Of a stretch of DNA of 64,000 nucleotides, positions 5,342 through 37,156 are shown piece after piece (position 1 is the stretch's first letter; each line of letters starts with the position of its first letter). Location: the NCBI GenBank assembly GCA_050084515.1, contig CM114271.1, positions 49,724,001-49,788,000 of the forward strand, written 5' to 3'. The notes under the pieces were generated by a model. That model was not told the DNA's origin. It did not search any database and saw only the letters and a program-made list of their open reading frames with translations. This DNA is from Blasia pusilla. Taxonomy: Eukaryota. A program made the position numbers and the translations under genes.

Positions 5342-5958
5342 TGTTGTGTATGCGCTGTCACCGAACACACATACAAACACGCACGAACCCATGCTTACTC
5401 ATGGCATCCAAACAACGAGACAAGAAGTACCAAAATATCTCCAATAAAATAAGATCCAATCTCTCCCTACTCCATCTCACACCATAGCTCTCAAAGGTGT
5501 GCACTCTCTCTCATGTCAAACCAAACCCACTCTCGTAATGAGAGGCTTGGGTTACACTCACAAGGCAAGCGACTATAGCTCCGCCGCCTTATGCCAAGAG
5601 GTTCAACAAAGAGAGAATGAGTTCTCAAGCTCTCTCTCCTTGAGGTATACCCCTCCCCTCTCCCAAGCTCTCTTCATGGTAACCTATGCTCCCAAGTCAC
5701 CTCCTTGGCACTTGACCTGATGTAGGAGGTCAAGGGCCACTTACCAAAAATAGAAAGTCGATCACATATTCAAAATGGTACTTACCTAAAATAGCAAGTT
5801 TCTCAATATGACTCTAAATGAGTCGAAACGAAGGGGAAACCTGCTCTCTCAGGTTTCCCGAGGCCTCAGCAGGTCATCCTCGACCTACTGAGCCTATCCT
5901 CCGCTACTCACGAAGGAGCTCTACTAGATCTCACCGATCTATCCTAAGAGACGTGACA
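5342..5958 (-). repeat. 3' LTR of copy A (subfamily 1)
   Basis: TG...CA termini. Colinear with the solo LTR at 57867-58522 and with the reverse complement of 36626-37156. Confidence 0.88.
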
Positions 5959-8900
5959 GTTGTCGTGCGCATATACATCACTACACAACATATATCGCTA
6001 TCACCGAACACACACACAAACACGCACGATCCCATGCCAACTCATGGCATCCAAACAACGAGACAAGAAGTACCAAAATATCTCCAATCGCCCCCCTAGT
6101 TGGTGGTTAGGTCCCTCTAACTCTAAATAGCCATCTATCCCTACCTACCATGACATACATCTCTCGAACGCTAAGAGCAAGAAGTTCGGGTGCTCATGTG
6201 GCCCCATCGTTAGTTGCCTTCTTGTCATCCATATCCCAGACACAAGTCAGAATGTAGAACTACCTACTCTATGTACATTTGGGACACATCCATCATCCCT
6301 GAGGAACGCTAGTGAGAGGTGGCGTCAAACATGCCATATGCCATCCTCTCGAACACCCATCACATACTAGCATAGTGGCTGTACCACGGGCGGAACCACA
6401 CAACATACACCGCAAGCTTGCAGGAACTATTGCTAAGCTCAGATAAACTGTACCTTCAATGTTCGGAAGATGACTTGGCGCACAGTTACGCACATGGTCC
6501 TTCCAAATCATACCATCGCGTCCCTCCAATAAGAGAACACCGGATGGCAAAACCTCACGCACTCTCAAGATGGTGCGCCCCGCAATCACATCCAACATCG
6601 TGGGAGCCGTCTGCTACAAGTAGACATAGTCTCCTTGATGAAACCTCCGGATAGTAGGTCGATAACCACCTCCCCGAATAGTCGCATACCTCAACGTATC
6701 CCGATGTTGCGCAATCGCCAAGTTTTCAAACGCCATGGGCATCACTCTCCTAAACAACTCAGCCCTCTGAGAACATGGTCGCATCCATACATCAAGATCA
6801 TCAAGGTTCAACACATCACCAGTATCTCGATGAATGGCGACAGGTAAATCTGGCTCACGGCCATAAAGCAACAAGTACGGTGAGAAAGACGCTAAGGATG
6901 CCTACCTACTGAATCTGTATCCCATCGCCAACCACAACAACTGAAGGTCCCAATCTCCTAGGTGACCTCTCTGCAAGCCATACTTACGTAGTCCTCTCTT
7001 CACCGTCTCGCACAACCCGCTCCGCTAGTCCATCCGCCTTAGGATGATCTCGCGAAGTAGTGCGGTGGCCGATCAGTGCCTGATCACACAAGGCCTGAAA
7101 CTCCCCGCGGAACTCTGTACCGTGGTCTGTCAACAACTCAGCTGGTGCGCCTTAATGACTTAGCATTCGATCTAGGAAGGCATACGCTTCTCCCTCACTC
7201 GCTTTATCATGAAATGCAACCAACTCTATCCACTTCGAGAAGTGCTCAACCATCACCAACACATAACGACTATGGCGCTCCGTCAAAGGCAAAGGTCTTG
7301 CAAAATCCAAACTCCATCTATAACCTAAACCCATGATCGGAAGTGGATGCAACTGTGTAGTCGGAGCATTGAACCATGCTTGGACTCGATCACACACCAT
7401 GCATCCTAAACTCTCTATCATCATCGTCATGTTGGGTGAGCACTGCTCTAAGCCCCAATATGCTCCAATCGGTATGCAATTGGAAAGGACGACCCCTGAT
7501 CGGTCTCCTCAATATGGGCGTGGACGTCAATCTGTCCTTGAGCATCTGAAATGCTCTCTCTTGCTCATCCCCCCAGTGTCACTCCTGATCCACCTTGGTC
7601 ATCAAGGTTAGCGGCTTCGCAATCGAACTGAAACCCTTGACGTATCGTCGATAGAAGTTCCCCAATCCCATGAATGCACGAACTCGACTCACATCTGTAG
7701 GGCGTGGAATGCGTGAAATAGCCTCAACCTTTGTCTGTTGCAAAGCAAGGCCCCGAGGGTATATCCTATGACCCTAGTTCTCAATCTGGTTGTAGAAGAG
7801 CTTGCACTTGCCTGGATGTAGCTTCAGCCCATGTAACTGCAATCGTCGAAATACCTCTTCTAGATGTCGCACATGCTCCTCAACCATGGCGCTAAGGACT
7901 ACGATGTCATCAATATAACACCTAGAAAAATCTAGGCCTGCCAAGATCCTATCCATGACCCTCCAAAACTCAGCCGGGGCGTTCTTTAACCCGAATGGTA
8001 AGAACCGCCATTGGTACAAACAATCCTTCCCGTGAGGATCAATGCCCCAAAATGCTGTCTTCTGCATGTCCTCCAATCTGACAGGCAACCGATGGTATCC
8101 GGCTCACAAATCCAATGAACTGAAGACCTTTGCATGCCCAATCGCATCAAAGATCTCCTCAGGGTTGGGCATGGCATACCTATCGGCCTTTGTTTGCCGA
8201 TTGATATGTCGGTAATCTCCACACATTCGCCTATCCGTCCAGTTGCCATGCACATCCTTCTTGGCAGGCATGATAGTGACAGATGCATATTCTCCATGCA
8301 ACATCTCCACTAGTCTTACTCCAACCAAGTCCTGGCTCCTACTCTGAATCAGAGCCCTCTCCATGTCACTATACATGTAGGGTTTTCAGAAGATCGACAT
8401 GTCACTCGACAACTCAATGCGGATCCCTTGACCCGTAAGCGTACCCAAATCATGCATACTAAATGTAAAATAACTCTTGGCGTACCTGCAAAACATCCCA
8501 AGAAGTCCAAGGGTGTCTCTCCCAATCATCCCTGGTATGTCGATCTCCTCGGGTCTCGCCCCCAACCACTGCCTCAACCGTCTCGGTACGCATGGGGCTC
8601 ACCAACGCAAAAATTGTGATCTGTCGTATCCTCAAACGACGCTCCTCAACTACTCATAAGCTGAAAATCCATATCAAGCACTTCAGATCCATTGCCTGAC
8701 CCAAGACATGACGTCGTGATGCCTCTTATAGTGACGGTACTGCCGTCACTCCTATGGGGAATCCCATCGCTCACTCTCGCTCATCGGCGTTGGGCTCCAC
8801 CAACCTCTGTACCTGGTCATCCCAAACCAAGCCAGGTACGGCCTCCTTGAATGCATAGGAAGCGGGAAAACTCATCAATGTGGGAAAGGCGGCTCGTGGC

Positions 8901-9751
8901 ATGCCAATCATGTTGACCACAGTCAACGGCGATCGATCATCGTGCCTCACTGCGTGTGATCTCCTCCTGTCAACTTAAGGCCCATATCTAGCTCCCAAAT
9001 CTCCATCGTGACTACGGTAGGACTCTCCGACGCGGGTCTAGGTGGTTCCTATGATGCAACCTTGTCTCGAACAACAAAACTCGACTGCTCCTCTACAGCC
9101 AATTACAAAATCGGATCTCCATGTTTAGTACCCATAACCACGCTTGATGTTGTGGCTACCATCTCCTGGCGTATCTGCAAAACATCTGAAAAAGTCCAAG
9201 GATGTCTCTCCTTATCACCCATGGTATGTCGATCTCCTCGGGTGTCGCCCCCAGCCACTCCCTCAACCGTCTTGGTAGGCATGGGGTTCACCAACGCAAT
9301 AGTTGTGATCTTTCGCATCCGAAAAAGACGTTTCTTAGCTACTCCTAAGCTGAAAATCCATGTCAAGCAGTTCAGGTCCATTGCTTGACCTAGGACATGA
9401 CGTCATGATGCCTTTGATAGTGATGGTACTACCATCACTCTTGTGGGGAATCCCATCGCTCGCTCTCGCTCATCAGCGTTGGGCTCCATCAACCTCTGTA
9501 CCTGGTCATCCCAAACCAAGCGAGGTCTGGCCTCCTTGAATGCATAGGAAGCAGGAAAACTCACCAATGTGGGAAAGACTGCCCGTGGCATGCCAATCCT
9601 GTTGACCACAGTCAACGGCGGTCGATCCTCGTGCCTCACTGCTTGTGACTGACGACCTTGATCCAGAATAGAATCCACTAACAAATCGGAGGGGCGCTCC
9701 ACTCTCGCATACGCCCTCCACAAAACCTCATGTGGCACCAATTTGGTCCAC

Positions 9752-9787: not shown

Positions 9788-12044
9788 ACCCGCTCCAAGT
9801 CCTGCGTCCCCAACAATGAAATATCCCTCAGTAGGGAACTCTGGTATCCCTAGACAGCGGACGCAGACAATAAGTCGGGAAAACGGAGGGGTAATTGCGC
9901 CATATGGTGAAGAGAAACGTGCCTTGTAACATCATCAATCTCCACATATAGGTACTTCTGCATGCGTACTCCTACCTGCAAAACAACAGCTAACCGAGAG
10001 CTGATCCCTCCAAAGAGATCCAACATTTGAATACCCTCCTCTGGGATGTGCCACACAATGGGTGTGGTATCCAAGGGTGTCATCATAGCACTCTCGGCTA
10101 CCTTGGGTTCCTCTGACCCGTCATGCTCTGGTGCAGACGTCTTGCTCCACGCGGCATGCACATGCTTCATGGCTAAGCGTCGAAGCTCCTTAGTTGAGCC
10201 CAAAAGCGGCACCTCTCCTCCACGGACTGATGCGGCAACAATGACACTCCTCTCCATAGAAATGTCAGGAACGAGAGTATCCTCTGTATGGACATGTTCC
10301 TCAATCAAATCACTAGGCCAAGTGATGGTGTTGCTAAGGTCGCCATCTCTCCTGGCCGGCGCTCGATCACTGCACCTGTGAATCGAACGGATAATGAGCT
10401 AAGGCGCCCATCATCTGAATGCCATCCTTGTCTGTAGGACGATGAATCCTCCCAGTAATCCAGGGAAAACCCCATCGGTATAACACTGCTCCACCAACCA
10501 AGACGTCATAGGACTCTGCATCAATCACTATCGCTTTGGCTCGCACCACGGACTCATCTGTAGGATATCCCGGGCGAATCCTCATCACGACCTCCTAACG
10601 GTTAATATACTGTGTAGTACTTGCTCCACCTAAGGATATCTGTATCCGGAATGGACAACGCTCCACATCGGCCCTCGTCAGGCCCAAACCTTTGAATGCC
10701 GCTTTAATTTCCCCAACATCAGGGCTTGCGCTTCTGAATCCAACAAGACGCGCAACTGACTAAAAGCTCTACCTCCTGGACTCACCAACTGGAAGACCTC
10801 TCCCCGGTTATCCAGCAAAACAAACACCAGGAGAAACCATGGCACGCTCTATCGGGGGTCTAGCGGGCATCTCTGCCATCCTAGCAACCGCACCCTACCA
10901 TGAATCTGACATGGACAGCTCGAGCATCAACTCCAAGGGCAAGTCCATCACCTCCTCTGAATGTGATGCAGGAACTCCAACTCCATGCTCACATAGCGTA
11001 GTGGCCATCCGGAAAACCTCGGTGGGAGTACCTCTCAATGTCATAATATCGGAAGCAGAAAATAAAGGAGCGCGATACACAACAGTGGCCGCCCCCAACA
11101 ACGTGCTCGACACATGCTCTTCCTGAACATCAGCAATAGGAGTCGTCGCACTCGCTTCTTTGATCGCCCTCCGTGCCTCCACACCAACAACATCACCAAC
11201 TCTCTTGGAACTCTGATGAGGACCCATCGATGGGGTCCTCATCGCCTCGGACAACGTGAAAGACTGAGGAAGCGTGGTCTGTTTCCTGGCTTTACCTTGC
11301 TGTGGATCCAACTCTACGGCTTCTTCACGCGTAACAATTGCGGCGGCCTCCATCTGGGCAACCCCGCACATCCAACCAGGATCCTTCATATGTCTAGCCG
11401 CTCCATAAGAGGTCGATGCCACGGATCTGGAATCAGGTAATCTCAATGCCATAGCGGCAATTTCTGCTGTTGTAGCTGTTGTATCTAAGCAGCCATCCCA
11501 ACCTCACGCCCGGCGTCTCCCTCGACGCATCTAGGTGGTGGGACTCTATCTCCTTCACGAGAAACTTCACCATCCCCTCGGGCGAATCCAACTCCTTGTC
11601 CCCCAACGGGACCACTTGGTGCACGACCTCTAGGCCCACCCGAACCAACAAGATGTGGGGGATCTCACATGATGAGCTTGTGCTCATACTTAGGGTTAGT
11701 CTCACTTATGCACGTTTAAAGCAAGTGGGGATTTCACAAAGAGTTTTTATTTGTAGTTCTTGCGACCATAGGTGCAACTCTTGGGACTACTACTTGTGAG
11801 AACAGGAAAAAGCGTTTGAAGAGTGGTTATGTTCATAGCAAAGGTATAGTGCGAAGGCTACAAATTTGTTGGAGTTTGAGGTGACAATGGGTACTACTCT
11901 TTGTATCTTTGCCTCTTGTTAAAAAGCCAACCAAAAACGCGTTTGAAACGTGATTTTAGGGCTCATGATAGGCTCCAGATGACGATCATCAATGACGGCG
12001 TGGGTCATGTCGTCTTCGACAAACAAGATTAAGTCCAGCTCTAA

Positions 12045-12472
12045 TCTATATTATTAAGGGTTGAGAGCCTTTTTTGATTTGCAAACTCCTCTCTACTTGA
12101 CACGTGGCAATTGGGCAGCAAGAAAATATTTCACATGTTACGGACAACAAGAAGTAAATTTGAATTCATGTGTAACATCATTAATCTCTTCCCTTCATGG
12201 GCTATACGCTAGCTCTTCAAATACTTTTTTATTTCCCTTGCATCGCAAGTGCATCTTATCTATATTATTATGGGAGAATGCCTTCTTGAGTTGCAAAGAC
12301 CTCTTTGCTTGACCTGTGACAATTGGGCAATGATAAAATATTTCACATGCTACGGGAAACCAAAAAAAAAAAAATTTATGTGCAACATCATTAATCTCTT
12401 CCTTTCATGGATTATATACTAACTCTTCATACACTTTTTCATTTCTCGTGCATCGCACGGACACTTTACTAG
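12045..12472 (+). mobile_element. Non-autonomous Helitron, two tandem ~214-bp units
   Basis: A|TCTATATTATTA starts at 12045 and 12259. Subterminal hairpin CGTGC-ATC-GCACG at 12447-12459. Ends CTAG|T at 12469-12473. Confidence 0.8.
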
Positions 12473-12875: not shown

Positions 12876-15800
12876 TTAAGGTGGGCTCCTGGTTATGTCT
12901 AGATTTGACTTGGATCTGATGAAACTTATACCAGGACGTTGATTTTGAACTAGCTCAACACTCCCGGAGGTGCTGCTTCTTTGGAAAACTCTCCTTTGAG
13001 GAAGCAGGGCCATGGATATGGAATCGTCTTCAAAAGAATGAGAATCGTCCAAAATGTGACACGAGTAGTTACCGTCCTCACTGGTGACGGGATCGGCAGA
13101 GCTATCGGCACTCGGAAGAAGCGACTGCAGTTCCTTGAATACTTCGTCCATACTCGGTCTGTCTTTGGACCGATCCCTCAAACATCTTGCCGCCAGTTTT
13201 GCTACGCTAGTAATTTCCTCCATTTCGCTCGCAAAATCGAGTCCTTGGGATAGAACGGGATCGACAAGTTTCCGTAACTGACCTGAACGTATGAGCGGAA
13301 GGGCATAGGCGCTGAGACCGTACTCCTCACGCGTGCCAGATCGGTCGATCACAGCTTGAGCAGAAATGAGCTCCAGAAGAATCACGCCAAAGCTGTAGAC
13401 GTCGCTCTTGGGTGTCGGCATGCCGCTTCCGAAATACTCCGGATCCATATACCCATAGGTTCCCGCCACGTGAAGTGTCTGCGTATTATCCCGAGGAGCT
13501 AGCTTGGAGATTCCGAAATCTGCAACCTTGGCTTTGAGGCTCTCGGTGAGAAGAATGTTGGCAGATTTCACATCCAAGTGGTAGATGACAGGGTCCGCGG
13601 AGTCGTGGAGGTATGCCAAAGCACCGGCTGTTTGCACGCCGATTGTAAGGCGCGATCTCCAAGTCAAGGGCGCTTCGCCGTGGGCTCTCCGCAGGTGATC
13701 GAGCAAGGTGCCATTGGGAACGTATTCGAAGACGAGAGCAGCGACCCTGTTTTCTAAGCAGCACCCGTACAGCTTCACGAGGTTCACGTGATTCACCCGG
13801 GACAGGATCTTGACTTCGTTGAGGAACTGGGTTTTATTCAGATCCGGACCGTCATGGTTGCTTTTCTTCACAGCCACCACGGAACCATCACTCAGAATGC
13901 CGCGGTACACAGTCCCGAAGCCACCGGCCCCGATCTTGCGGCTCTCGGTAAAATTATTGGTGGCCTTTCTGAGGTCCTTCAGAGGCATAGTCAAAGTCGC
14001 ACTCTCTCGCAAAACTGCTATAAGATCTGCGTCTTGGCGGTGTTTCCGTCTGTAGACTCTCGAGCGCCATACCAGCAACGCACAGCTGCCCACGGCGATA
14101 GCAATGGACACGCTTAGTACGACCACAAGTGCTCCGGGTCCTGATTTCTCGGAACACTCTTTGAGAGGGGGGCCACAGAGTCCTGGATTTCCAAAGAAAC
14201 TCGTCGCATTGCGAAGTCGGCAACCACCATATGGGAGCTGTCCCGAAAGGGAGTTCTCGGATAGATTGAGATATGCCAAACCTTCCATATCACACACGCT
14301 GTTGGGAACCCCGCCGGTCAATCTATTGTTCGACAAATCTATGTAGCGAAGGACCGGAAGGGTCCCATTGCTCCACTCCGTTGAAAGACTCCCCAACAAG
14401 GTGCTGCTGCTGAGGTCCAAGACTGTAAGAGACGTCAGTTCTCCCAAAATTTGGGGCAATCCTCCAGTGGAATTGATCCTGCTCAGATTCAGGTATTGCA
14501 AATCGAGAGAACTCAGGAACAGTATCTGCAGAAATCCCCTGAACAAGCTGACCATGGGATTGAGGCTGACATCCAACACCTGCAGATTCCTTCCACCCCC
14601 GGCTCTAATTTCCAAAGTTCCAATCAGGTTATTCCCTGCCAGTTGCAAGTCTTGAAGTCGCCAGCCTACATCGAGTTGGAATTGGTCTACGCGAATTGCC
14701 AGGTGGTTGTGCTGCATCCGCACCACCAGGAGATTTCGGAGGGAAAGTCTGGGGGGAAACGTCGTGAGCCGATTATGACTGAGGTCCAGATATGTCATCG
14801 ACAATTCTGAAGAATTCATAAGCGCCGCTTCGTCTTCTACACCCTCCAAGGAATTGAATGACACATTCAGGCTGTCCTGAACGCCGAGCAGCAACGCTAC
14901 AGTTAGGCTGCCGTTGAGCTGGTTTGCTGACAGGTCGAGACTGTCCCGTGTGCCCTGCCCGAATTCGCGAGGGATGACACCGGTCAAATTGTTGGAAGAC
15001 AGATCCAAATCGGAAATCCCACCAAACGCAGGTGGTATTGGTCCCTCCACTTGATTATGTGAGAGATTCATTTTTGTCACCCCCTGAAGACCATCCAGAC
15101 TAGCCAGTGTGCCATTCAGCTTATTGTCGGACAAGACGATTGTGCGGATCTGCGGCATGTTGGCGATCCCTGAGGGGATCGGTCCTTCAAGCTGGTTGTT
15201 TGACAAATCAAGTGTCTCGAGATTGACGAGGGCATCCAGACTCGGGATGATGCCGGTCAACTTATTGTGAGAAACATCGAAGAGGCTGAGATTCACCATT
15301 TTGGCGATCCCTGATGGCAGCGGTCCCTCCAAGTAATTGTTGGAAAGAATCAGAGTCACGAGGTGTATGACATTGTCGAGGACAGGGATCGTGCCAATCA
15401 AATCATTGTACGAGAGGTCCAAGATCTTGAGATTCCGCAAGTTCGCAATCCCTGATGGCATCGAGCCCTCTAACCGATTGCGAGAAAAATCGAGTTCCTC
15501 GAGATTTTCCAGACTATTCAGATTAGGTAGTGTGCCATTCAAATTGTTCTCCGACATGGTCAAACTCTTCAATGCCCGGAGTCCCCCGATGCTGCCGGGT
15601 ATGGTGCCCTCCAATTGATTATTCGAAATATCAAGCGTTATCAATCCCGTCAAGTTGCCAATCTCCGTTGATATCGAGCCCCCTAGTTTCTTCGTAGAAT
15701 CTTCTCCCAAATTGCTTAAACTGAGGTCCTCAACAGTAACGCTAGCGTTTCCTCTTCCACATCTCACCCCAGTCCATTGACAGACTGAGAACGTACTCGA

Positions 15801-16007
15801 CTCATCCCAATCCGCCAGCAAACCACCTGCATCTATAAAATCTCTTTTGATTGCAAGGAGTACTTGCTTTTGCGCTTCTTCTTGCGCAAGCACAGTGGGA
15901 CTGTGCACTACGGCGCAGTACGTAAAGAATAGAAACAACAACTTGGAGATTCGATGTTGTGACGGATGGAGAGGAGCGTCCGTAGAACACGGACACACAA
16001 GACCCAT
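12876..16007 (-). CDS. Leucine-rich repeat receptor-like kinase, 1043 aa, single exon, non-RD
   Basis: Signal peptide; LRRNT cap (LLADW...CQWTGVRC); about 20 plant LRRs (LxxLDLSxNxLxGxIP); GNPGLCG cap; TM (ALVVVLSVSIAIAVGSCALLVW); kinase motifs GAGGFG, VAVKK, HLDVKSAN, DFG, GTYGYMDPEY, SDVYSFG. Confidence 0.96.
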   Translation of the reverse strand: MGLVCPCSTDAPLHPSQHRISKLLFLFFTYCAVVHSPTVLAQEEAQKQVLLAIKRDFIDAGGLLADWDESSTFSVCQWTGVRCGRGNASVTVEDLSLSNLGEDSTKKLGGSISTEIGNLTGLITLDISNNQLEGTIPGSIGGLRALKSLTMSENNLNGTLPNLNSLENLEELDFSRNRLEGSMPSGIANLRNLKILDLSYNDLIGTIPVLDNVIHLVTLILSNNYLEGPLPSGIAKMVNLSLFDVSHNKLTGIIPSLDALVNLETLDLSNNQLEGPIPSGIANMPQIRTIVLSDNKLNGTLASLDGLQGVTKMNLSHNQVEGPIPPAFGGISDLDLSSNNLTGVIPREFGQGTRDSLDLSANQLNGSLTVALLLGVQDSLNVSFNSLEGVEDEAALMNSSELSMTYLDLSHNRLTTFPPRLSLRNLLVVRMQHNHLAIRVDQFQLDVGWRLQDLQLAGNNLIGTLEIRAGGGRNLQVLDVSLNPMVSLFRGFLQILFLSSLDLQYLNLSRINSTGGLPQILGELTSLTVLDLSSSTLLGSLSTEWSNGTLPVLRYIDLSNNRLTGGVPNSVCDMEGLAYLNLSENSLSGQLPYGGCRLRNATSFFGNPGLCGPPLKECSEKSGPGALVVVLSVSIAIAVGSCALLVWRSRVYRRKHRQDADLIAVLRESATLTMPLKDLRKATNNFTESRKIGAGGFGTVYRGILSDGSVVAVKKSNHDGPDLNKTQFLNEVKILSRVNHVNLVKLYGCCLENRVAALVFEYVPNGTLLDHLRRAHGEAPLTWRSRLTIGVQTAGALAYLHDSADPVIYHLDVKSANILLTESLKAKVADFGISKLAPRDNTQTLHVAGTYGYMDPEYFGSGMPTPKSDVYSFGVILLELISAQAVIDRSGTREEYGLSAYALPLIRSGQLRKLVDPVLSQGLDFASEMEEITSVAKLAARCLRDRSKDRPSMDEVFKELQSLLPSADSSADPVTSEDGNYSCHILDDSHSFEDDSISMALLPQRRVFQRSSTSGSVELVQNQRPGISFIRSKSNLDITRSPP

Positions 16008-19000
16008 TTGACGACTACTCCCAGCAAGCTCTGTCCCACATGTGCATATGCAACCTTGGCGCGTTACATAAGCGATCGCTTTTTCTGTTTTACGGATGTA
16101 ACAATCAACCTGTCAAGCAACGATAATTCGTCAAATTGATTCCCGAAATTTAACATTTCAGGGTATGCATAGGCTCCAGCTTAACCATCTCCAATTGCTT
16201 GAGAACCCATGAATCCAGCGCTGCCCAGCTTTCCTTCCGGTTCCCAAAGACTGAAGTGACCAATAACAAATGGGCGTCATGATCACAAGGTACTACCTGG
16301 CCAACAACAGCTGGTTACGGGAAGCTACATTTTCATGTTACTGCCAGGCTCCTGAAAGTTAAGTATAGTAGATTGCGCTCAGCGTCGCACTTTTGGTGAG
16401 TAGCAGCTGATATTCAAATCGTGTGTTGAATACATGATCATCATATACGTGTGCCACTCCACAGTAAGCTATCACTTCACATGCAGTATCCCTTCGAACT
16501 GGGTGTGATGCCCCTCCCACATCGAGCCCTAGACCTGACAGCCCAACCATCTACATTCTGGATCCAAGAAATAGTACCTTCTCCATGGGGAGTTGCCTCA
16601 CCAAGATGACCAAGTGACGTAGAAGAAAGTGATCTAAACAAGGTCCAGAAGCTAGTGAATCAATGATCCTTATCAAGCACATACCTTTCTGGTCTCATTC
16701 TTCTCGAGCACCGACAACTGATCTTCGAGCTCCAATATTTCCGCTCCAAATAAAAAACGACTTCCTCCATGGGACTGCCGACTTCACAGGAGCTCAACGG
16801 TATGTCTATTCCTCGGGAGCTTCGTCTGGATGCTGGTGATAAAGCAGGGAAAAGAGCTTACAACGTCTGAGTTTCGTATTCACGAATCTGAGCAAGACCT
16901 GTGGGGATTCCCCTTCGATTGGAATACAAAATCGTGAGGTCGTTCTAACGATTTTGTGCTCGCACTTAAATTCAGCAGCCAACACTTAAGATCTGGAAAC
17001 ATATCTTGCCTATGGATACGGCCCGCACGCTGCAGTCTACAGAACATCCCGTTCGTGGAAACGAAAACAAGGGTCACGCATAGCTCGGGGTTCAAATGAA
17101 GGGATCCATAAATAGAGCGTATAGCAAGTCAAATCATGAAGGTCAAACTGTGGAAAGAGCTTCAGGCAGAGCGTGTAGGGTACTAGAATGATGAAATCCC
17201 AACACTCTGCAAACGGCAGACATTCGGATTCGTCCACAAGTCAAGCAAATGCGAGGATTGAACTGGAAGTCGACTTCAGATTGCAAGCTCCATCTTGACC
17301 ACAGGATTCGACGCACTGGATGCAGGGTCGCTACTACAACTAGTAGGCTCCAGACTCTAGCCTTTCATTTCCGAGCTTCTGCGAACGCAAACTGGTCCAG
17401 GTCTACGCGTACGAAACTCGTCCGCAACGAACTACAAAAAAGGATTCCCGAAAAAAACTCTCACACCATCCATTTACCGCTCTTCTTCATATACCTGTCC
17501 ATTCCGAAGCGCGTGGCAGCTAAATGTAGACTCCAAGACTACCAGAGGTCTTTCATTCCGAAGGCGCTGCAATCACACATTCGTGGAAGGTGGTCTTTTC
17601 AACTTTTTTTGTGCACGTGTGTCATTCCGACCTTGTCACTTCCAATGAGCTGCATTTTAGAACAATTTCCGGAAAGATCCTCGTGCTCTAGCGACGCACC
17701 GTCAACAACCGCGAAAGACAGAAAACCCAAGAGAAAGTGCTTCGAGTTGCGCTGAATACCCACCATAGTCGCCTCGGGACCTCAAGCCATAGCATGGCCA
17801 CTAGCTTCGAATCCTGGCATCTCGTTGTGTACATACGGATCAACGGAACAAGTCCGTAGAACGACGCGAGTCATGATGCTCCAGAATCCCGCGCACTTCG
17901 CTCCGCCGTTCCAATGACCCACCAACACACCATCCCATCCATCGCCCGGGTACCCCGCATGTTTCCGTTTTTAGCTTGAGAACAAGAAAACCGAAATGCC
18001 TCCAAATTTCAAGTTCAGTTGACTTAGAACGAGTGCTTCGGTGGTCACTAACAAATTGTAGACTACTGATACGCAAGCCCGTTGTGGTACTTGCAAACTG
18101 CAAAGTATGCGCAAAACACTTACACAGCTGGAACATTGCACGTAGAATGAAAGCGGGATCCGAGACTAAACATTGTTGTGTCAAAGCGAGTCACTGATTC
18201 ACAACAGATTCTTCGACGACATTACCTAAGGGACGTTACCAGAACTGTGTCTCCAAACTCCTCTTAACCCTCGAGAGCGTTGCTTTGATCTTCATCCGGA
18301 GTTGAGATCAGGTCGCGGCCGTGGTGGAGTAGCTTCGAGAGGCCGAGGTGGTATGGGTGGTAGAGGTGGACCAGTGGTTGGAGAGCTTACAGTGGCCACC
18401 CCTACCACTACAACAGAGTCAGCTATGGCTGCCAAGATTGAGCAGTTGGACCAGAAGTTGGCTACTAGGGCTGGTATCCAGCATAGATCAAGTTCGGGAG
18501 CAGGGGCTTCCACCTCTTATGGAGGGGATGATCTCTCTTATATGGCGAAAAGACAAAAGTTGAGGTTGAAGATTCAAACGTTACGCCAAGAGGAGCCAAT
18601 TCTGAGAGGAGCCACTCGGCGTCGAGCCACGTGGTGCTCTCTGTGGAGTTGGGCCCCTGAGGGGTGAGGCCGGAGAGGAGCAGGCTTCCCAATTGGCCAG
18701 AGACTTTTTTGGGTCATTCTTGTTGTCTCGAGGTGCTTAGGACTCCATCCATGGTTCTTACGCAAGGAAGACCTATTGAGCCGGCAGTGGGGATTGGGGC
18801 ATCTACATCGCGTGTAGTAGACACGGATGCACTAAGACATCGATCTTGATTACGGATGGCAACCGGTGTTGGGATCCCCATTGTTTTTCGCCCGCCACGG
18901 AGCTAATGGCTTTAGGAGTTGCCTTAGCTCATGTATTTTGGACTAAGTCTTGTACCACGTTGTGTAAACATGGGGTATTATTCTTGCACGTCTTTGAGGT

Positions 19001-20024
19001 GGATGAGGATGTTGCGGTGGAGCGACCCTCTATGTTGTTGGTGTAGCATTGAGTACCAGTGCTACTTGGCGGTGGCGGCGGCGAAGATGGATGCACTACC
19101 GGCCCGGGCAGGTGGTGAGCCATTGATCGTGAGAGGCTTACACCTGGTGTAGGTATGTTGGACAACCGGAGTGGGATATTTCGATTGGTGAGTCCTACAG
19201 GACATGTGTATAGACCATATAGAGTCTTGTTAGACTCGGGTGCCCAACCTTTGATGTTGGGAAAGGCGGCATGTATTGGTTTGGGTATTCGGAGGTCAGA
19301 GCTTGAGCCTTGCCCATTCCAGATTCAAACATCACTTGGAGGCGCCAATGATAGGTCTCAATTCATGACACGAGAGAAGTTATGTACAGTTGAGACCAGA
19401 TCATGCGACTAATAGCTCTTGGTTGGGAGTACCTACAGTGGTCACATCAGGCGAGTCGTATGATGTACTAGTTGGAGGAGCAGTATTGTACCCAATGGGT
19501 TTTCATATGGACTACTGGACTGAGACATCGTCTTATAGACCTGGTTGGCAGTCCGGGGATGGACGTATGAACCAGGTTCCTGTGAGATTTATTTATGGGG
19601 CTCGACCAAGAGGGTCTTCCCCAACGGTGTTAGCATCTGTGGTTGGTTTTAGTGGAGTAGTCACTTGGCCAGGAGACTTTTTGGAGGGTAATCTTTTGCT
19701 ATGAACATCCAGCCAGGTTCACACAGTGAATCTAGGAGGTTGGAATCAAAAGTGTGGCGTGCAAAGCTGGATTCTCCTGTGAATGAGGAGGTAGAGGAGG
19801 TCCCTAGTTTTGCAGCAATGGCATCCTCATCGTTGGATGTGCCACTTTGGAGTTCAGGCGGTGCACTACGGCAAGAGGCTGATCGCCTAGTGCAGGAGGC
19901 TTGGTGTGAGGCTGGTATACCTTACAAGGAAGAGGAGGCCCCATGGCGGACTCCTACTTCTGGTCTAGTTGGGTTATCCCCTTTGGATACTACACCCATT
20001 GTATCGCAGTATCCGCTAGAGGGC

Positions 20025-20975
20025 ATTTGTGTGTTAGATCTCTTTGGTGGGATTAGCACTAGTTTGGCTGCAATGTTGTAGGCCGGTATTCCTCTGCGGA
20101 GATACCTGTATGTGGAGCGAGATGAGACGGCCCAGAGAGTCTCATCCCAACATATCGGTCACTTGATGTGGAGATATCCTGAGTTGTTGCCGCCATCAGC
20201 TATTCGTGGCTACCAGCGTGCTTTGCCGTCACACATTGCATTGTTGGGGGCGCAGGACCTTGAGAGGGTTGCTCCTGTGGATTTGGTGATTGCTGGATGG
20301 CCATGTCAGGGTCATACACGTGCTGGTCGTGGTGAGGGATTACACGACCCTAGGTCTCGATTGTTTTGGGAGATGTTACAGGTGTTACGACATCTTCAGG
20401 TTCATGAGGCACGTACTTCACCTTACATTTTGGAGAATGTTCCATTGTTGGGTGACACTCGGACCCGGATGATGGCGAGTGTTGATGAGGTGGGGTCTTG
20501 GATTGGACCAACGGTGTTGTTGGATGCAGCGCGAGTCGGCTCGCGTGCACATCGTCCACGCTTGTGGTGGACAAACTTGTTGCGTAGGGAGGTTCTACGT
20601 CGAGCATATGATGCAGTGCAGCGGGATCCTTGCCTTACACTGGATAGTATCTTGGATACTGGGCGACTTTCTCAGGTGGTGAGGGTTATTGATCGGTCAC
20701 CCATGGTAGTGGTGAATCGTGTGGGCCAGCCTAGGATGGCACTACCCACATTTGTGAGTTTTCCCTCGTCACATGCCTACAGGGAAGGTGGTCTCGGGCT
20801 TGTATGGGATTCTCATGTGCCAGAGTTGGTGAAGCCTAACGCTGATGAGAGAGAGCGTGCGATGGGATTTGCCACTGGTATGATAGTGGTTGCTTCCATT
20901 TATGAGGCTTCACGACGTCATGTGTTGGGTCAGGCCATGGACCTGAATTTTTTGACTTGGATTTTGAGTCTTGGT
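20025..20975 (+). pseudogene. DNMT3-like C5 cytosine DNA methyltransferase domain within pol of copy B, in frame with RT; one premature TAG at 20079-20081
   Basis: Motif I ICVLDLFGGISTSL; II YLYVERDE; IV DLVIAGWPCQG; V GLHDPRSRLFWEML; VI YILENV; VIII SRAHRPRLWWTNL; IX NADERERAMGF; X RRHVLGQAMD. Canonical (non-permuted) order. ORF 20112-21806 runs directly into RT. Confidence 0.93.
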
Positions 20976-21399
20976 ATGGCCGAGCAGCGTCGACTTCGGA
21001 CTATGTCTGTGGGTCTTCCACCCCTTGTGATGAGCTCGATGGCTACCAGGACGGTAGAGGCATCGGTTAGGGGCAAGGAGAGTAGTATTTTGCATCCTTG
21101 GAGTAAATGGGATGTAATGGATGGGCATGTGGAGTTGGTTGCTCATGCTGGTGGAGGAGTTATTTGCTCATATGATGGTGTAGCTAAGGGTGTACCATCT
21201 TGTGAGGGGTTCGTGAGCAGACCAATGGCGTCGTCCTCTCCCTCTAGTGTGCCAGTGGAGGAGACTTGGGAGCCATTACTTGGGCCCAAGCTTACGGGAG
21301 GTGAGAAACGATGCTTGACACAGTTCCTACGTGCTTATAGGAGTTGTTTTGCCTTTATCATGAAGGAGTTGGATGCTTTGGTTGGACCCGGTATACGGA

Positions 21400-23950
21400 T
21401 TGATTTGGCTAGTGATATGCCAATCTTTCGTCGTCCCTACCGATATAGTGATATGGAGAGGGACCTGATTCAAAGTAGGACGTTGGAACTTTTGGAGGCT
21501 GGATTAGTGGAGTTATCGCATGGAGAGTATGCATCAGCCACTGTCATTCCTGCTAGAAAGGATGTGCATGGCAACTACACGGATAGGCGGATGTGTGGAG
21601 ATTATCGTCCTATCAATTGGCACACCAAGGTTGATAGGTATGTCAGGCCTACACCTAAGGAGATCTTTGATGTGGTGGGACAGGAAAAGATTTTCAGTAC
21701 TTTGGATCTTCGGGCAGGATACCATCAGTTGCCGATTCGAGAGAATGACAAGGCCAAGACAACATTTTGGGGTGTCAACTCTCATGGCAAGGATTGTTTG
21801 TACTAGTGGAAATTCTTACCCTTTGGGTTGAAGAATGCACCTGCCGAGTTTCAGAGAGTGATGGACAGGATCCTAGCAGGGTTGGATTTTGTTCGGTGTT
21901 ACATTGATTATATCTTGGTGTTGAGTAACACGGTGGAGGAGAATCAGATACATTTACATATTTTGTTTGAGCGGTTGAAAGCTCATGGTCTACTTTTGCA
22001 TCGAGGAAAGTGTAAGTTCTTCCATGAGGATGTTGAGTACTTGGGTCATGTGATCTATCCAGGTGGTTTGGGAGTTCAACAAGCAAAGATGGAGGCAATT
22101 GCACTTATTCCTCATCCGGTAGATGTGAGTAGAGTTCGGGCATTCATGGGATTGGCGAACTACTATCGGAGGTATGTGAAGGGATTTTGTGCTATGGCAA
22201 AGCCTTTGAACCAATTGTTGAAATCTCTTATCTTACAGGAGTATGACTTCCAGGTGGTACATAGACCTGGAGTTGCCAACCTTGATGCTGATGGGTTGAG
22301 TAAGAACCCATGTACTAGCCAAGAGGATGCAATTGGGGCTAGATGGCATGGCGAGGTTGATGAGGAGATGGTGCCAGGTTGGCATGCATTCGCCTTTTTA
22401 TGTTGGTTAGGGATGGACTCTAGTATGGAGGACCACACGACATCTTACTCTAGTCAGAGGGTAGATGGCCAGCCTTCAGATCCTAAGGTTGGAGATGGTG
22501 GTACGGATCAACATGATATTCATGATGATGCGTTGGTGTTGGAGTTCCTACGGACCAGTAGGGTGCCAGGCATAGTGAGTGCCAAGGAGCGAGACTATGT
22601 TCTTCAACGTGCTAAGAGGTATCGATTGGAGGGAACACATATTCTCCGTGTGTGGGAGGATCGTAGAGTACGAGTAGTGCCGCATTTGGCTCAAAGAGAG
22701 CGCATTGTGCGACATGCCCATGAGGAGTTGGGACATTTTGGGGTAAAGCGTACGTATAGCTTACTCGTTGGTCAATATTGGTGGCATGGCATGCATACTC
22801 AGGTGCAGCAGTTGGTGTCACGTTGTATGGTTTGTGACTGGGTGAGGGCATCATTCAATACCCCTATACCACAGTTACATCTCTTGCCTATTATGGGGTT
22901 GGGTTACCGTTGGAGTGTGGACTTTGCGGGACCGTTACCGTTGATTGTACGACATCATCGATATGTGTTGGTGATGGTGGAGCACTTCTCCAAGTGGATT
23001 AAGTTGGTGGCATTACCTGACAAGGCAAGTAAGGGAACCGCGTATGCGTTTCTTGATAGAGTGCTTAGTCATTTTGGTGCACCAGCTGAAGTGCTGACCG
23101 ACCAGGGTACAGAGTTGCAGGGTGAGTTTCAAGTCTTGTGTGACAAGGCGTTGATTGAACACGTCTCGAGATCATCCAGAGGCAGATGGTTTGGCTGAGC
23201 CTGTGGTTCAGACGGTGAAGAGGGCATTACGCAAGTATGGCCTACAGAAGGGGCATCTTGGAGACTGGGATATTCAGTTGCCATGGTTAGCCATGGGGTA
23301 TAGGTTTAGTCGCCAAGCATCTTTGGCTTCCTTCTCAGCTTATTTTCTGTTATACGGCCGAGATCCAGACTTGCCAGCAGCAATTCGTTCGGGAATCTAG
23401 TGAGGTGGTGAACCTTGATAACCCAGAGATGTGGATGAGAGTGTGTTCTCAGCGGGCAGAGCTCTTTCGGAGAGTTATGCCAATAGCCTTTGAGAACCTC
23501 GCCATTCCTCAACACAGGGATACGTTGCGGTATGCAACCATTCGGGGTGGAAGTTATCGACCATCAATTCGTAGGTTCCATATGGGGGACTATGTCTATT
23601 TGCAGCACATCGCATCGACAACGTTGGATGTGACGGCAGGCCGCACTATTTTACGAGTGCACGAGGTGTTAGCTTCTGGATTTCTCATGTTGGAGGGTTG
23701 TGATGGAGTTGTTTGGAAGGACCATGTGCGTAATTGTGCGCCATATCATCTTCCAAATGTGGATGGTACTGTTGACCCAAGCTTAGCCATGATATGTGCT
23801 AGCTTAAGGTGCATGTTGTGTGGGTATGCCAGTAACGCAGCCCGTATGTTGGTGTGTGATCGGTGTTCTATGGGTTGGCACATGATGTGTTTGACTCCAC
23901 GTATGGATTTTATTCCTACTGGAAGGTGGGTTTGTCCTCGATGTACTTAG
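21400..23950 (+). pseudogene. RT - partial RNase H - integrase - PHD finger of copy B
   Basis: RRMCGDYRPIN, FSTLDLRAGYHQ, PFGLKNAPAEFQRVMD, YIDY (mutated YxDD), LQEYDFQVVHRPG..N..ADGLS, HAHEELGH...CMVC, WSVDFAGP, VLTDQGTE, HPEADGLAE, then a C4HC3 PHD CMLC...CDRC...HMMC...CPRC before the stop at 23950. Confidence 0.93.
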
Positions 23951-24224
23951 GAGAGGTAGATGACTTGATCTTTGCATGATATGGATTACACATAGGCGAC
24001 TAACAATGGGGCAACCTAGCACCTGGCATTCTGATTCGTGCACCCAAGAAGGTGTATAGCATGTAGTAGATGTATAGGGCTACAGGAGTTAGGGACCTAA
24101 CCTTGATTAGGGGCGAGTTATAGTACACTTGTGTTTGTGGATGCTCTCGTCTATGTTATGTATGTATGTGAGTATGGTATGTCAAGGATGTATGTTGTAT
24201 GACGATGTGGATTCGCATGACAGC

Positions 24225-24685
24225 TGTCATGACCATACGGATTATGTTGTAGAGTATAGTGTGCTAGTAGAGGCCATACCTTATGTAGGGCCGTAGTGTC
24301 TAGGTAGAGATGCAGGGTTGGGGGTTACTCAGTTGAGGATGACTTTTCCAGTAGGGCCCGCTCTTAGGTTGGAGGATATAGTGTGGAATGCACTCAAAGA
24401 ATAGTTAGTTCTTTGAGTTGAGCCTGTTGCGTTGGAAGTTAGCCTTGGTAGTGAGTAGAGCTCTTGGCTATGGTGGTTCCCGCAAGCTTCGACCTGGATT
24501 CTCCCATTGTCGAGTGGGTTTGGCTTGATTATATGTGATTCTATATGTGTTTTATGACAGTAGGTCTTCACGGATTTCAGTTATGGTACGCTTGTGTTTG
24601 TGGATGCTCTCATCTATGTTATGTATGTATGTGAGTATGGTATGTTAGCGATGTATGTTGTATGACGATGTGGATTCGCACAACA
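24225..24685 (+). repeat. 3' LTR of copy B (subfamily 2, 461 bp)
   Basis: Begins TGTCATG and ends CACAACA. Its last 107 bp (24579-24685) are duplicated at 24116-24222. Confidence 0.8.
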
Positions 24686-30454: not shown

Positions 30455-32375
30455 CTAGGCCTAGGCATTATTTAGCTTGTGAGGTCATTTGATTTGATGC
30501 ACCAGAGTCAATCTACCAATCTATTGTCAAGTCTTTCTTGACCATTGCTCCCATATAATGAGTCATGACCAAGAGATGCTCCGTTTATGAATGTTGTTGT
30601 TCTTGGTATTGCTCTCGGTGTTGTTGCTCGACATAGTTTTGTTGTTGTAAGGGTCTTGTTCTCATATCTGCCTTCTTCTTGAAGCAAAACTTTGCATAGT
30701 GACCCTTTATCCCACAGTAATTGCAAGATCCAGGGACCCTCTACTGCTGACCTCGATCCCAACGGTCTCCACCATCATCACCTTGTGATTATGTTTCGTA
30801 CTGGTTCGTAGTTGATTGAGTGACGTTATATTCAGTGCCTCTTCCTCCATATGCTTGATATCCACCACGACCACAGAGGTTTCTTCCACGGGCCCTACCT
30901 CTGTTTGATCCATAACCTACAAATAGCGCACTTTCTTGCAGACTAGACAAGCTACCGCTGCCTACTAGGCGTATCTCTTCACTAATCAACAGAGGAACTA
31001 ACTCTTGAAAAGTTGGATATTTCTCTCTCACAAAGATAGAGGTCTCAAAGGACTTGTAATCATTTGGAAGGCCTTGAAGAGTGAATAAAATCAGATCATC
31101 ATATTCTACTGTCACTCCAATGCTATTCAACTGATCAACAATATGTTTGATACTCAAAATATAATCATTGATGCTCTGCGATCCTTTTCTCACTTCACTC
31201 AATTGTTGTTTCAATTGAAGCTTTCTGACCTTTTTAGATGTCTAGAACAGCTTTTCCAATGCATCCCAGGCCTCCTTCGGACTATCAATATCTTGGATGT
31301 GACTTATCATTGGCGAAATGATCATTATTGAAATGTAGTGGATTACTTGCCTTGCGCGTTTGTTCCAAGCGCGAATATTCAAGTCTGTTGAGTCACCTTC
31401 TAGCTTGGCCTCATCACCTGCGACAAGCTCTCATAGTTCTTGACCCATGAGAAATTATTTCATACGAAACTTCCACACATTATAATTATGCTTATCTAGC
31501 TTTTTGCTTGTGATTGTTGTTGAGGAATACTCCATGATAAACGATTTCACTCACAAAAACGTAATTTCAGACTTTCTACTGCTCCAATTGAAGGATAGAC
31601 CAATCCTACACAGAAATCGACTTGAAATTTGCCAAAATTGATCAACTGTATGAAAGAACTAGTCAAAATTGGCTTGTAGAGAGCAAATTGCACAACTTTT
31701 CTTCACTAATTGCACTTTCCTACACTGAAAATTGCTACTGCATGAGCTCAGAGTGTCAGAATCGAGAAATTTTGGGTGCGTTGGAAAGCTCTCAACTAGT
31801 TCTACAAGACGGCTAGAATTAGCCTTTGGAATTTTTATAGCCAAAGCATACCCAGACGGCTGAATCGACCAGGAAAGCCAAAAAAATGCCTCCAAAGTTT
31901 TATCACCGTTAAAGCTCCACCTGAAATCTGCACCCACTGAGCTATGAATAAAATTTCCTTCTCCCAAATTGAAATTGTGCCTTCTCTTGCCTCTCTTCTC
32001 TCTTCAAACACCAAGAATTTCAAGTGATGTTCTCCTCTCGCTCTGATACCATGTGGAAAACTACTAAACAAGCATAATTGGTGGAAAATGGCTCTCACAC
32101 ACACACACCACCATGGAGGAAAAAATTTGCAATGAGAGAATGAGTGGAGGCTGGTCCTCTTCTCAATTATATAGGATATGTACAGACAATCATAACCCTA
32201 CCCTTAACGATAGTCTCGAGTTAGACTAATTGTGATTAACTAACCCTAGTTAAGATAATCGTGCTTAACTAACTAACCAAGATTAAGCTTCCCTACTTCA
32301 TGTGAGTACCAAATGTAGCAGCTCAGGTGTCTCATGAGCTTGACTGTAACTCAATCTTCAATACGTCCTACAACA
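30455..32375 (-). mobile_element. Ty1/Copia retrotransposon 5' part: LTR 32375-32052, PBS, gag, start of protease; truncated
   Basis: LTR TGTTG...CCACA followed by the tRNA-Met PBS TGGTATCAGAGC (32051-32040). Gag KLDKHNYNVWKFRMK...SINDYILSIKHIVDQLNSIG...LQGLPNDYKSF; zinc knuckle CNYCGIKGHYAKFC (~30730-30690); protease W*IDSGASNQMT (~30520-30480). Confidence 0.9.
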
Positions 32376-35300: not shown

Positions 35301-37156
35301 CTTTGACGGAGCGCCATAGTCGTTATGTGTTGGTGATGGTCGAGCACTTCTCGAAGTGGATAGAGTTGGTTGCATTTCGTGACAAAGCGAGTGAGGGAGT
35401 ACCGTATGCCTTCCTAGATCGAGTGTTGAGTCATTACGGTGCACCATCTGAGGTGCTTACAGACCAGGGTACAGAGTTCCGCGGGGAGTTTCAGGCCTTG
35501 TGTGATCACACACTGATCGACCACCGCACTACTTTGCGAGATTATCCTAAGGCGGATGGACTAGCGGAGCGGGTTGTGGAGACGGTGAAGAGAGAACTAC
35601 GCAAGTATGGCTTGCAGAGAGGTCACCTAGGAGATTGGGACCTTCAGTTGCCTTGGTTAGTGATGGGATACAGATTCACTAGGCAGGCATCCTTAGCGTC
35701 TTTCTCACCGTACTTGTTGCTTTATGCCGAGAGCCAGATTTACCTGCGGCCAATTGTCGAGATGTTGGTGAGGTGTTGAACCTTGATGACCTTGATGTAT
35801 GGATGCGAGCATGTTCTCAGAGGGCTGAGTTGTTTCGGAGAGTGATGCCCATAGCGTTTGAGAACTTGACGATTGGGCAACATCCGGATACGTTGAGGTA
35901 TGCGACTATTCGGGGAGGTGGTTATCGATCTATTATCCGGAGGTTTCATCAAGGAGACTATATTTACTTGCAGCAGACGGCACCCAAGACGTTGGATGTG
36001 ATTGCAGGGCGCACCATCTTGAGAGTGCGTGAGGTTTTGCTATCCAATGTTCTCTCATTGGAGGGATGCGATAATATGGTTTGGAAGGACCATATGAGTA
36101 ACTGTGCGCCAAGTCATCTTCCAAACATTGACGGTACATATGATCCGAGCAATAGTAATTCCTGCAGGAGTGCGGTGTATGTTGTGTGGTTCCGCCTGTG
36201 GTGCAGCCACTATGCTAGTCTGTGATGGGTGTTCGAGAGGATGGCATATGGCATGTGTGACGCCACCTCTCACTAGGGTTCTTCAGGGACAATGGATGTG
36301 TCCCAGATGTACATAGAGTAGGTAGTTCGATATTCTGACTTGTGTTTGTGACATGGATGACAAGAAGGTGACTAACGATGGGGCCACATGAGCACACGAT
36401 CTTCTTGCTCTTAGCGTCGAGAGATGTATGTCATGGTAGGTAGGGATATATGGCTATCTTGAGTTAGAGGGACCTAACTACCAACTAGGGGGGCGATTGG
36501 AGATATTTTGGTACTTCTTGTCTCGTTGTTTGGATGCCATGAGTTAGCATGGGATCGTGCGTGTTTGTGTGTGTGTTCGGTGACAGCGATGTATGTTGTG
36601 TAGCGATGTGTATGCGCACGACAACTGTTACGTCTTTTAGGATAGATCGGTGAGATCTAATATAGCGCCTTCGTTAGTAGTGGATGACAGGCTCAGTAGG
36701 TCGAGGATGACATGTTGAGGCCCCGAGAAACTTGAGAGAGCAGGTTTCCCCTTCATTTCGGCTCATTTGGAGCCTTATTGAGTAACTTACTATTTTAGGT
36801 AAATACCATTTTGAGCATATGATCAATTTCTATTTTTGGTAAGTGTTCCTTGACCTTCTACATCAGTCAAGAGCCAAGGAGGTGACTTGGGAGCATATGT
36901 TACCATAGAAAGAGCTTGGGAGAGGGAAGGGGTATACCTCAAGGAGAGAGATCTTGAGAGCTCATTCTCTCTTTGTTGAACCTCTTGGCATGAGGCGACA
37001 AAGCTATGGTCTTGCTTGCCTTGTGTGTGTGTAACCCAAGCCTCTCATTTGGAGAGTGAGTTTGGTTTGAAATTTAGAGAGACATGTGAGAGTGCACATA
37101 TGTGAGAACTATGGTGTTGTGAGAGAGATTGGATCTTATTTTATTGGAGATATTTT
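32376..37156 (+). mobile_element. Ty3/Gypsy LTR retrotransposon carrying DNMT and PHD domains, copy C (subfamily 1); 5' part lost at the Copia junction, 3' LTR truncated
   Basis: DNMT RVLDLFGGISTGL (~32775), ISGWPC*G (33040-33060), YILENVP, RADRPRLWWTNL, LGQAMD; RT with YIDD (34384-34743); integrase (ORF 34910-35779); PHD (36176-36316); LTR from 36626. Confidence 0.93.

Follow-up and report, generated by a model that had tools for sequence, protein, structure and literature searches.

The 64,000-nt stretch of Blasia pusilla DNA analysed here (GenBank assembly GCA_050084515.1, contig CM114271.1, forward-strand positions 49,724,001 to 49,788,000; termed the window, in whose positions all coordinates are given) contains three copies, A, B and C, and one solo terminal unit of a retrotransposon family with split terminal repeats. 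Judged by their domains, these elements are Ty3/gypsy-type retrotransposons of the DNA methyltransferase-carrying (Gypsy-DNMT3) kind. Once integrated, they read Y - leader/gag/pol - polypurine tract (PPT) - X - NN - Y - X', i.e. A1-body-B1-A2-B2, where X' repeats X and NN is a two-base spacer. In the standard teaching, retrotransposons with long terminal repeats (LTRs) and retroviruses insert linear cDNA by its physical ends, circles being dead ends. The integrated copies of this integrase-bearing family are instead circular permutations of the product expected from their PPT and primer binding site (PBS), and their topology is probably that of a cDNA joined at its ends, as in a 2-LTR circle, and then opened at an internal palindrome. 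Three elements of this account appear to be new, as read from the sequence: the unit X-NN-Y as the LTR of reverse transcription (named LTR* here), the Y|X' joint as a U5/U3 joint, and two snap-back fossils that bear on self-priming.

An earlier reading made from the window alone (the sequence-only reading) had described an unusual 3' terminus, and direct reading of copy B, on the plus strand, agrees with it closely. A PPT-like G-run (TAGGGGCG, 24108-24115) stands immediately 5' of block X (= B1, 24116-24222), which is 107 nt long, ends in CATGACA and recurs as the terminal block X' (= B2, 24579-24685, ending in CACAACA) with 93% identity over 107 nt, or 94% over 102 nt in a second comparison. 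X is joined to the body Y (= A2, 24225-24578) through the perfect 16-bp palindrome CATGACA-GC-TGTCATG (24216-24231), which we take to be a right-end-type and a left-end-type integrase site placed across a 2-bp spacer. The start of the repeat had been placed two bases early, since Y begins at 24225. Within Y are a TATA box (24377-24380) and the two arms of a small hairpin (24392-24401 and 24408-24418); the RNA is predicted to start at the 3' one, GTTCTTTGAGT, and to use it as its own primer.

Copies A and C represent one subfamily and copy B another, and block X measures 107-128 bp across the three. The 3' end of copy C (36485-37156, plus strand) has the parts attributed to it, namely a G-run (CTAGGGGGGCG), X (36496-36623), the junction CACGACA-AC-TGTTACG with spacer AC, and Y (36626-37142); its X' is reduced to 14 nt (37143-37156), after which the sequence is unrelated. 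The mirror-image arrangement described for copy A is likewise present on the minus strand (whole 3' end 5342-6110), with the G-run at 6089-6099, X at 5961-6088, the spacer AC at 5959-5960, Y at 5446-5958 and X' at 5342-5445; this X' is 94-95% identical to X and is shortened by a loss of about 24 nt close to its end. The solo Y-X' unit (57867-58522, or 57863-58526 with its duplications, minus strand; TGTTACG...CTTGACA) had also been recognised correctly and is flanked on both sides by the 4-bp duplication TGTG. As a separate observation, window position 6123 is fused to 24083, on opposite strands, in 22+22 RNA reads and 11 DNA contigs; these fusions link B-like 3' untranslated sequence to A-like PPT and X, and intermediate or recombinant subfamilies are therefore present in the genome.

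To place the window copies in a wider family, 75 related metagenome loci were retrieved with an alignment of the integrase C-terminus of copies B, C and A; none of the 75 belongs to the A/C subfamily. X was found downstream of the match in 57 loci, while the other 18 end too early or lie in non-aligning subfamilies. The sequence-only reading had proposed checking whether family members carry the extra block, and they do: CTAGGGGGG(C/T)G stands directly 5' of X in 55 of the 57 X-bearing loci. The 3' end has the form X-NN-Y-X' in 22 loci (13 flank-distinct and the divergent L036, 14 in all) and X-NN-Y in five: in L049 the contig stops before the element does, L042 has suffered a deletion, and L002, L010 and L012 are snap-back forms. 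Thirty loci end in X only, a few of them at contig ends or in disrupted sequence, which leaves about 20 flank-distinct X|flank termini. The 5' ends, available in 12 loci of which 10 are independent, are uniform: all ten read flank|TGTCATG...Y...CATTTTC|ACTCAAAGAAC-leader, and X is found neither before nor after the 5' Y in any of them. Y-only 5' ends combined with PPT-X-NN-Y-X' 3' ends therefore define the A1-body-B1-A2-B2 layout. This is the arrangement of split direct repeats and the A-coding-B-A-B order of Gypsy-DNMT3 elements, and not the pair of complete, equal LTRs found at the ends of Ty3/gypsy elements. The likeness to the split direct repeats of PAT, TOC and Ngaro elements had been seen from the 3' ends of the window copies and is substantiated by these termini; the Y-only 5' end was invisible to that reading because copies A, B and C keep no 5' end.

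In every X-Y locus, 2 bp separate CA from TG (GC, AC, AT, GT or TC), and all variants except TC are reachable from GC by transitions. At least four subfamilies whose Y sequences cannot be aligned share the layout, namely the window B type, the A/C type, the L051 type and the L036 type, and chance is excluded because the layout recurs across these subfamilies and in 14 flank-distinct loci. The same evidence bears on a purely local origin of the extra block, by tandem duplication or nested insertion in a few copies of an ordinary LTR element. The age and damage of the window copies would suit such an origin and nothing further speaks for it; the block following the PPT in nearly all X-bearing loci, its presence in subfamilies whose Y cannot be aligned, and the absence of X from all 10 independent 5' ends make it scarcely credible, and the sequence-only reading was right to treat the layout as a family trait. 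An 8-nt flank shared by L007, L071 and L074 is only an apparent match, as it does not extend into real flank homology. One internally deleted derivative (L004 = L059, one locus) has Y and PBS fused to the half that encodes reverse transcriptase (RT) and integrase (IN), at L051 element position 6119; its 3' end is X, and three of four bases of its duplication match.

The complete copies begin with TG, end with CA and are flanked by 4-bp target duplications, within the 4-5 bp of Ty3/gypsy elements. These duplications are perfect in five of nine complete copies and match in at least three of four bases in eight of nine; six of nine are perfect if the start of L055 is set by homology, i.e. if its terminal TG is taken as mutated to TC. 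Among shifted control positions, 3 of 180 were perfect. Such ends weigh on the view that these are DIRS-order elements of PAT, Ngaro or TOC type, whose circles a tyrosine recombinase inserts. The layout of split direct repeats is identical, and in PAT-like, TOC, kangaroo and Ngaro elements A1-body-B1-A2-B2 is likewise found, with the B1-A2 joint representing the joined termini of the element (PMC3266345, PMC7192593). However, those elements are described as carrying a tyrosine recombinase and integrating as circles without target duplication (PMC3266345, PMC7192593), whereas the present ones combine TG..CA ends and 4-bp duplications with a DDE integrase (rve and Integrase_H2C2) located after RT, and no tyrosine recombinase family was matched among the 40 open reading frames (ORFs) scanned. 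A DIRS-order identity is thus very improbable.

One further copy provides insight into where the integrase can act. L001 (5183-10833) has as its left end the last 10 nt of Y (TGTCATTTTC) followed by the PBS, and X as its right end; the left end thus lies 10 nt ahead of the PBS, at a second TGTCAT, and the duplication ATGT/ATGT is perfect. The integrase seems to have used this second TGTCAT site, and it would therefore be able to use a site deep inside DNA. At the X/Y palindrome, cuts after both CA on opposite strands across the 2-bp spacer would yield recessed CA-3'OH ends with 2-nt 5' overhangs, and a recessed CA-3'OH end with a 2-nt 5' overhang is the standard processed form of an integrase substrate.

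The boundaries of the repeat identify which unit reverse transcription would see. The first base of X directly follows the G-run and the last base of the 5' Y directly precedes the 11-nt PBS ACTCAAAGAAC; exactly these two boundary bases meet where Y passes into X' in the 3' unit. The joint reads ...CATTTTC|AGTTGTGG in about 10 independent loci, with a 19-nt insert in L015 (= L018), and an equivalent precise joint is present in the A/C subfamily and in window copy B, where the base preceding the PBS is fused to the base following the PPT. Adjacency to PPT and PBS thus holds for X-NN-Y and fails for the integrated terminal unit Y-X'. With the PPT at the X end and the PBS at the Y end of X-NN-Y, the Y|X' joint is therefore the end of U5 fused to the start of U3, and X-NN-Y has the boundaries of a repeat that fits reverse transcription, LTR*. 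The proposal of the sequence-only reading that the PPT is displaced from the LTR does not survive this comparison, as the PPT adjoins X-NN-Y and the PBS lies at the other end of the repeat. Because the PPT adjoins LTR* on one side and the PBS on the other, plus-strand priming looks canonical, and the non-canonical priming once suggested gives way to a minus strand that appears self-primed in the manner of Tf1.

Evidence for self-priming comes from complementarity, predicted folds and fossil junctions. The sequence-only reading had proposed testing whether a tRNA PBS follows the 5' LTR; the PBS directly 3' of the 5' Y is not of tRNA type, and its 11 nt are complementary to GTTCTTTGAGT within Y, about 31 nt past the TATA box. 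Pairing between PBS and this motif involves 9-11 of 11 positions in all eight testable 5' ends (the motif is deleted in two more), and L055 has two compensatory double changes in the pairing. In minimum free energy folds of the predicted RNA from its start through U5 and the PBS (R-U5-PBS, 168-181 nt), the first 11 nt all pair with the PBS in four of five copies, and 9 of 11 do so in the fifth. Two fossils with different flanks, L002 (match end +560..+830) and L010 (= L012), read X-NN-Y-ACTCAAAGAAC-TAT-GTTCTTTGAG and then continue into Y in reverse complement; this inverted part takes in about 198 nt from the start of Y, runs to the first base of Y and has CATGACA at the flank. On the opposite strand, the primer motif passes without a break into the complement of the U5 end, i.e. 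of the last bases of Y. A self-primed strand, or plus-strand strong-stop DNA that had snapped back, would leave this trace, and the fossils appear to record annealing of the PBS to the primer motif together with an integrase cut at the inverted copy of the left end. Minus-strand priming therefore looks Tf1-like on the strength of these sequence features.

These features also bear on a direct route in which non-canonical priming at the X/Y joint would yield linear cDNA of the form Y...X-NN-Y-X', with a plus-strand primer ending at NN, a minus-strand primer on the start of Y, and an integrase that acts on true ends. TG..CA termini with 4-bp duplications are what an integrase makes of linear ends, and the palindrome could fold. 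Against this, there is no purine richness 5' of Y2 and the conserved G-run adjoins X in 55 of 57 loci, the self-complementary PBS adjoins Y1 and not X, the Y|X' joint matches the PPT and PBS boundaries, and the snap-back fossils place the start of synthesis at the end of Y. We regard this direct route as improbable.

A sequence of steps that would connect LTR* with the integrated form can be proposed. The RNA would start at GTTCTTTGAGT and prime its own minus strand as in Tf1, and the cDNA would be synthesised as LTR*-body-LTR*. Its ends (the end of Y and the start of X) would then be joined, either by ligation to a 2-LTR-type circle or by joining after the cut. The DDE integrase would cut the CA-NN-TG palindrome inside the PBS-proximal LTR*, its staggered cuts over the 2-bp spacer leaving two recessed CA-3'OH ends with 2-nt 5' overhangs, and insertion with a 4-bp duplication would give the circular permutation that is observed. 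Only this permutation has both a promoter-bearing 5' Y and an R-bearing 3' Y, so only it can replicate again. Of these steps, the end-joining and the cleavage of the palindrome are those that we infer from integrated copies. The sequence-only reading had named end processing by the integrase among the possible unusual steps, and the choice of ends by the integrase does seem to be where these elements depart from the canonical pathway.

Several observations weigh against an end-joined cDNA opened at its palindrome. No extrachromosomal cDNA form was observed, and the other permutation expected from a symmetric circle, Y-X-NN-Y-body-X, was found at none of the 10 independent 5' ends. Every copy examined has stops or frameshifts; the three window copies are all degenerate and 5'-truncated, so that the window contains no element 5' end. 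RNA reads form no beginning or end peaks in the LTRs that would mark the RNA start and poly(A) site. The flank-distinct contigs that end in X alone could mean that both LTR* palindromes of linear cDNA are usually cut to give A-body-B, in which case circles would not be the main route. Finally, L045 and L055 share their 3' flank (99% over 7.5 kb) while their element parts are 91% alike, and their 3' forms differ (X-NN-Y-X' versus X only); this mismatch of flank and element implies that the metagenome contigs of the family are partly mosaic and that X-only ends need care.

These X-only ends are central to the strongest competing account, in which the integrase, acting like a transposase, usually cuts both LTR* palindromes of ordinary linear cDNA. 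The primary insertion would then be Y-body-X, and A-body-B-A-B would be a minority product of tandem or end-joined LTR* that forms the sole replicating lineage. The roughly 20 X|flank contigs are in its favour, as are four full-length Y...X contigs with duplications (L008 TGTT, L046 ATTA, L055 TGTG, and L048 with three of four bases) and L001, where the integrase would have paired sites far from any cDNA end. However, X-only ends, if not primary insertions of Y-body-X, could equally be deletions left by recombination between X and X' after insertion, or stem from assembly collapse of the two 115-bp repeats. One locus is seen in both forms (L045, L055), X-only ends occur in none of the three copies in the window's own assembly, where A, B and C all continue beyond X, and the replicating form would still require end-joined LTR*. 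We consider double cutting of linear cDNA unlikely as the usual route, though less so than the other alternatives, and continue to prefer the end-joined cDNA. A stronger version of the latter, to which we give somewhat less than even credence, is that end-joined or circular cDNA is an obligatory precursor of every replication-competent insertion, with a palindrome of the LTR-LTR junction type built into LTR* itself.

The resemblance of the X/Y joint to an LTR-LTR circle junction, suggested by the sequence-only reading, is borne out by the CA-NN-TG palindrome. The palindrome of the retroviral LTR-LTR junction has a 4-bp spacer. That junction exists only in circles, whereas the palindrome of the present elements, with its 2-bp spacer, is a permanent and inherited part of the repeat. 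Alike in both is a CA...TG palindrome made of the two ends of the element as a substrate for integrase, and cleavage of the palindromic 2-LTR circle junction is described for the integrases of prototype foamy virus (PFV; PMC1180852) and HIV-1 (PMC1905944, PMC4372172). This cleavage is the nearest enzymatic precedent.

The layout itself has been noted once in print. For KnitGypsy-Dnmt3 of Klebsormidium nitens, the legend of Fig. 4c in de Mendoza et al. (2018, PMC5890265) gives a repeat structure of DIRS elements with domains typical of Gypsy, and the authors write the DIRS arrangement as A-coding-B-A-B. Compared by this published description, that element and the present ones are alike in a Gypsy-type Pol, a Dnmt domain in the polyprotein and the split layout; they differ in that the closest proteins of the present elements are from liverwort and moss, and the passages on KnitGypsy-Dnmt3 give no boundaries, PBS, PPT, duplications or mechanism (PMC5890265). 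A 2026 preprint mentions "streptophytes (Gypsy-DNMT3)" and leaves the termini undiscussed. In the openly searchable literature, subscription journals lying outside it, the 2018 legend was the only mention found of an integrase-type element with split repeats, and no paper resolving the termini, priming or integration of such an element was found there (supplements outside the search). The layout is thus not categorically new, and it is the mechanism behind integrase-type split-repeat elements that is unexplored and now directly testable. Tf1/sushi elements are known to prime themselves, and a prediction to this effect exists for their Tcn1 relatives in mosses (Neumann et al. 2019, PMC6317226). 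As described there, Tf1/sushi elements including plant Tcn1 share with the present family the lack of a tRNA-type PBS and an 11-nt sequence next to U5 that is complementary to the predicted RNA start, but they have ordinary LTRs and a chromodomain (PMC6317226), whereas the elements studied here have split repeats and, at the integrase C-terminus, a PHD finger instead of a chromodomain.

If the proposed route is true, these elements would be a natural system in which an integrase acts on an internal palindrome, and the split-repeat layout would be explained without a tyrosine recombinase. In the stronger version, with end-joined or circular cDNA as the obligatory precursor, the old idea of the circle junction as an integration substrate would be realised in nature, and the family would represent an integrase-based counterpart of, or an evolutionary bridge to, the split-repeat elements that use tyrosine recombinases. 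The snap-back fossils provide sequence-level evidence for self-priming in a plant element. There is also a practical consequence, as LTR finders expect two equal LTRs and so miss or mis-bound this split-repeat family.

The coding content of copy B, all on the plus strand, places the elements among the Ty3/gypsy type. A gag remnant, preserved from inside the second CCHC knuckle onwards, shares 18250-20081 with a weak protease match; these are followed by a Pol ORF piece with a C-5 cytosine DNA methylase domain (PF00145, E 4.9e-9) that continues into RT (20082-21806), by the C-terminal part of RT, the RNase H region and the zinc-binding and catalytic core domains of integrase (21807-23198; RVT_1, Integrase_H2C2, rve), and by the integrase C-terminal region with a PHD finger at its end (23291-23950; PF00628, E 1.6e-9). 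The PHD finger is also kept in copies A and C. The Pol order of Ty3/gypsy elements, RT - RNase H - DDE integrase, is present, with RVT_1 preceding Integrase_H2C2 and rve in a single ORF, and the methyltransferase domain within the Pol polyprotein is that of Gypsy-DNMT3 elements, with matching domain sets in homologues. Among solved structures, Ty3 Gag-Pol (7q5b) and PFV integrase come out as the best relatives. Hypothetical proteins of Marchantia polymorpha (60-72% identity) and Sphagnum fallax come closest among named proteins and combine PF00145 with PF00078 and PF17917/PF17919, and more distant proteins with the matching domain set are found in green algae; judged by these proteins, the family is apparently widespread in green plants and algae. 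In the viral contig collection scanned, the RT-IN ORF has no relatives. Full-length copies are about 9.2 kb long and their gag shows two CCHC knuckles, recognised by eye alone; Pfam returned no family for the 5' ORFs of these copies.

No 5' Y belonging to copies A, B or C was found in the window by self-blastn, sensitive blastn with the LTRs or tblastx, and alignment of the 5' regions of copies A and B likewise gave none. Copy C starts at about 32374, the body of copy A extends to about 11660 and ends inside gag, and copy B is missing the 5' Y, the leader and most of gag. The truncation of copy B is also indicated independently of homology, by mRNA contigs of a neighbouring kinase gene that extend to 17831 and by DNA word depth, which stays single-copy up to 17673. 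A candidate left end for copy B with a duplication (ACAT near 18171 versus the flank CATT) was one base off and was dropped. Copies A and B stand opposite each other on the two sides of the kinase gene, both ending in gag at a nearly identical element position, and the metagenome copies L028 and L041 are also truncated, within at most ~300 nt of this gag cut position.

Stranded RNA reads are in sense orientation on both families, X and Y included, with the receptor-kinase gene as strand control. These reads come from other copies, because most are only 90-95% alike to the window copies; an estimate of the RNA 3' end from depth proved too coarse and was discarded. The kinase gene itself (12876-17831, minus strand) lies between copies A and B, is expressed and encodes a leucine-rich repeat receptor kinase with LRRNT_2, LRR and Pkinase domains. 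A 575-bp intron (16108-16682) lies in its 5' untranslated region, its mRNA contigs extend to ~17831, and its product has a plant-type N-terminal cap; together with the closest proteins of the elements, this points to a land plant, probably a bryophyte, as the source of the window. Downstream of it is a tandem pair of ~210-bp units (12040-12460); a second tandem pair, of 189-bp units, is located at 2563-2950, and copy A contains a 486-bp internal duplication with 689-bp spacing (8474-9648). Other mobile-element remnants in the window comprise ORF pieces of a PIF1-like helicase (41390-42514, plus strand) and a copia-type gag fragment (30789-31241, minus strand).

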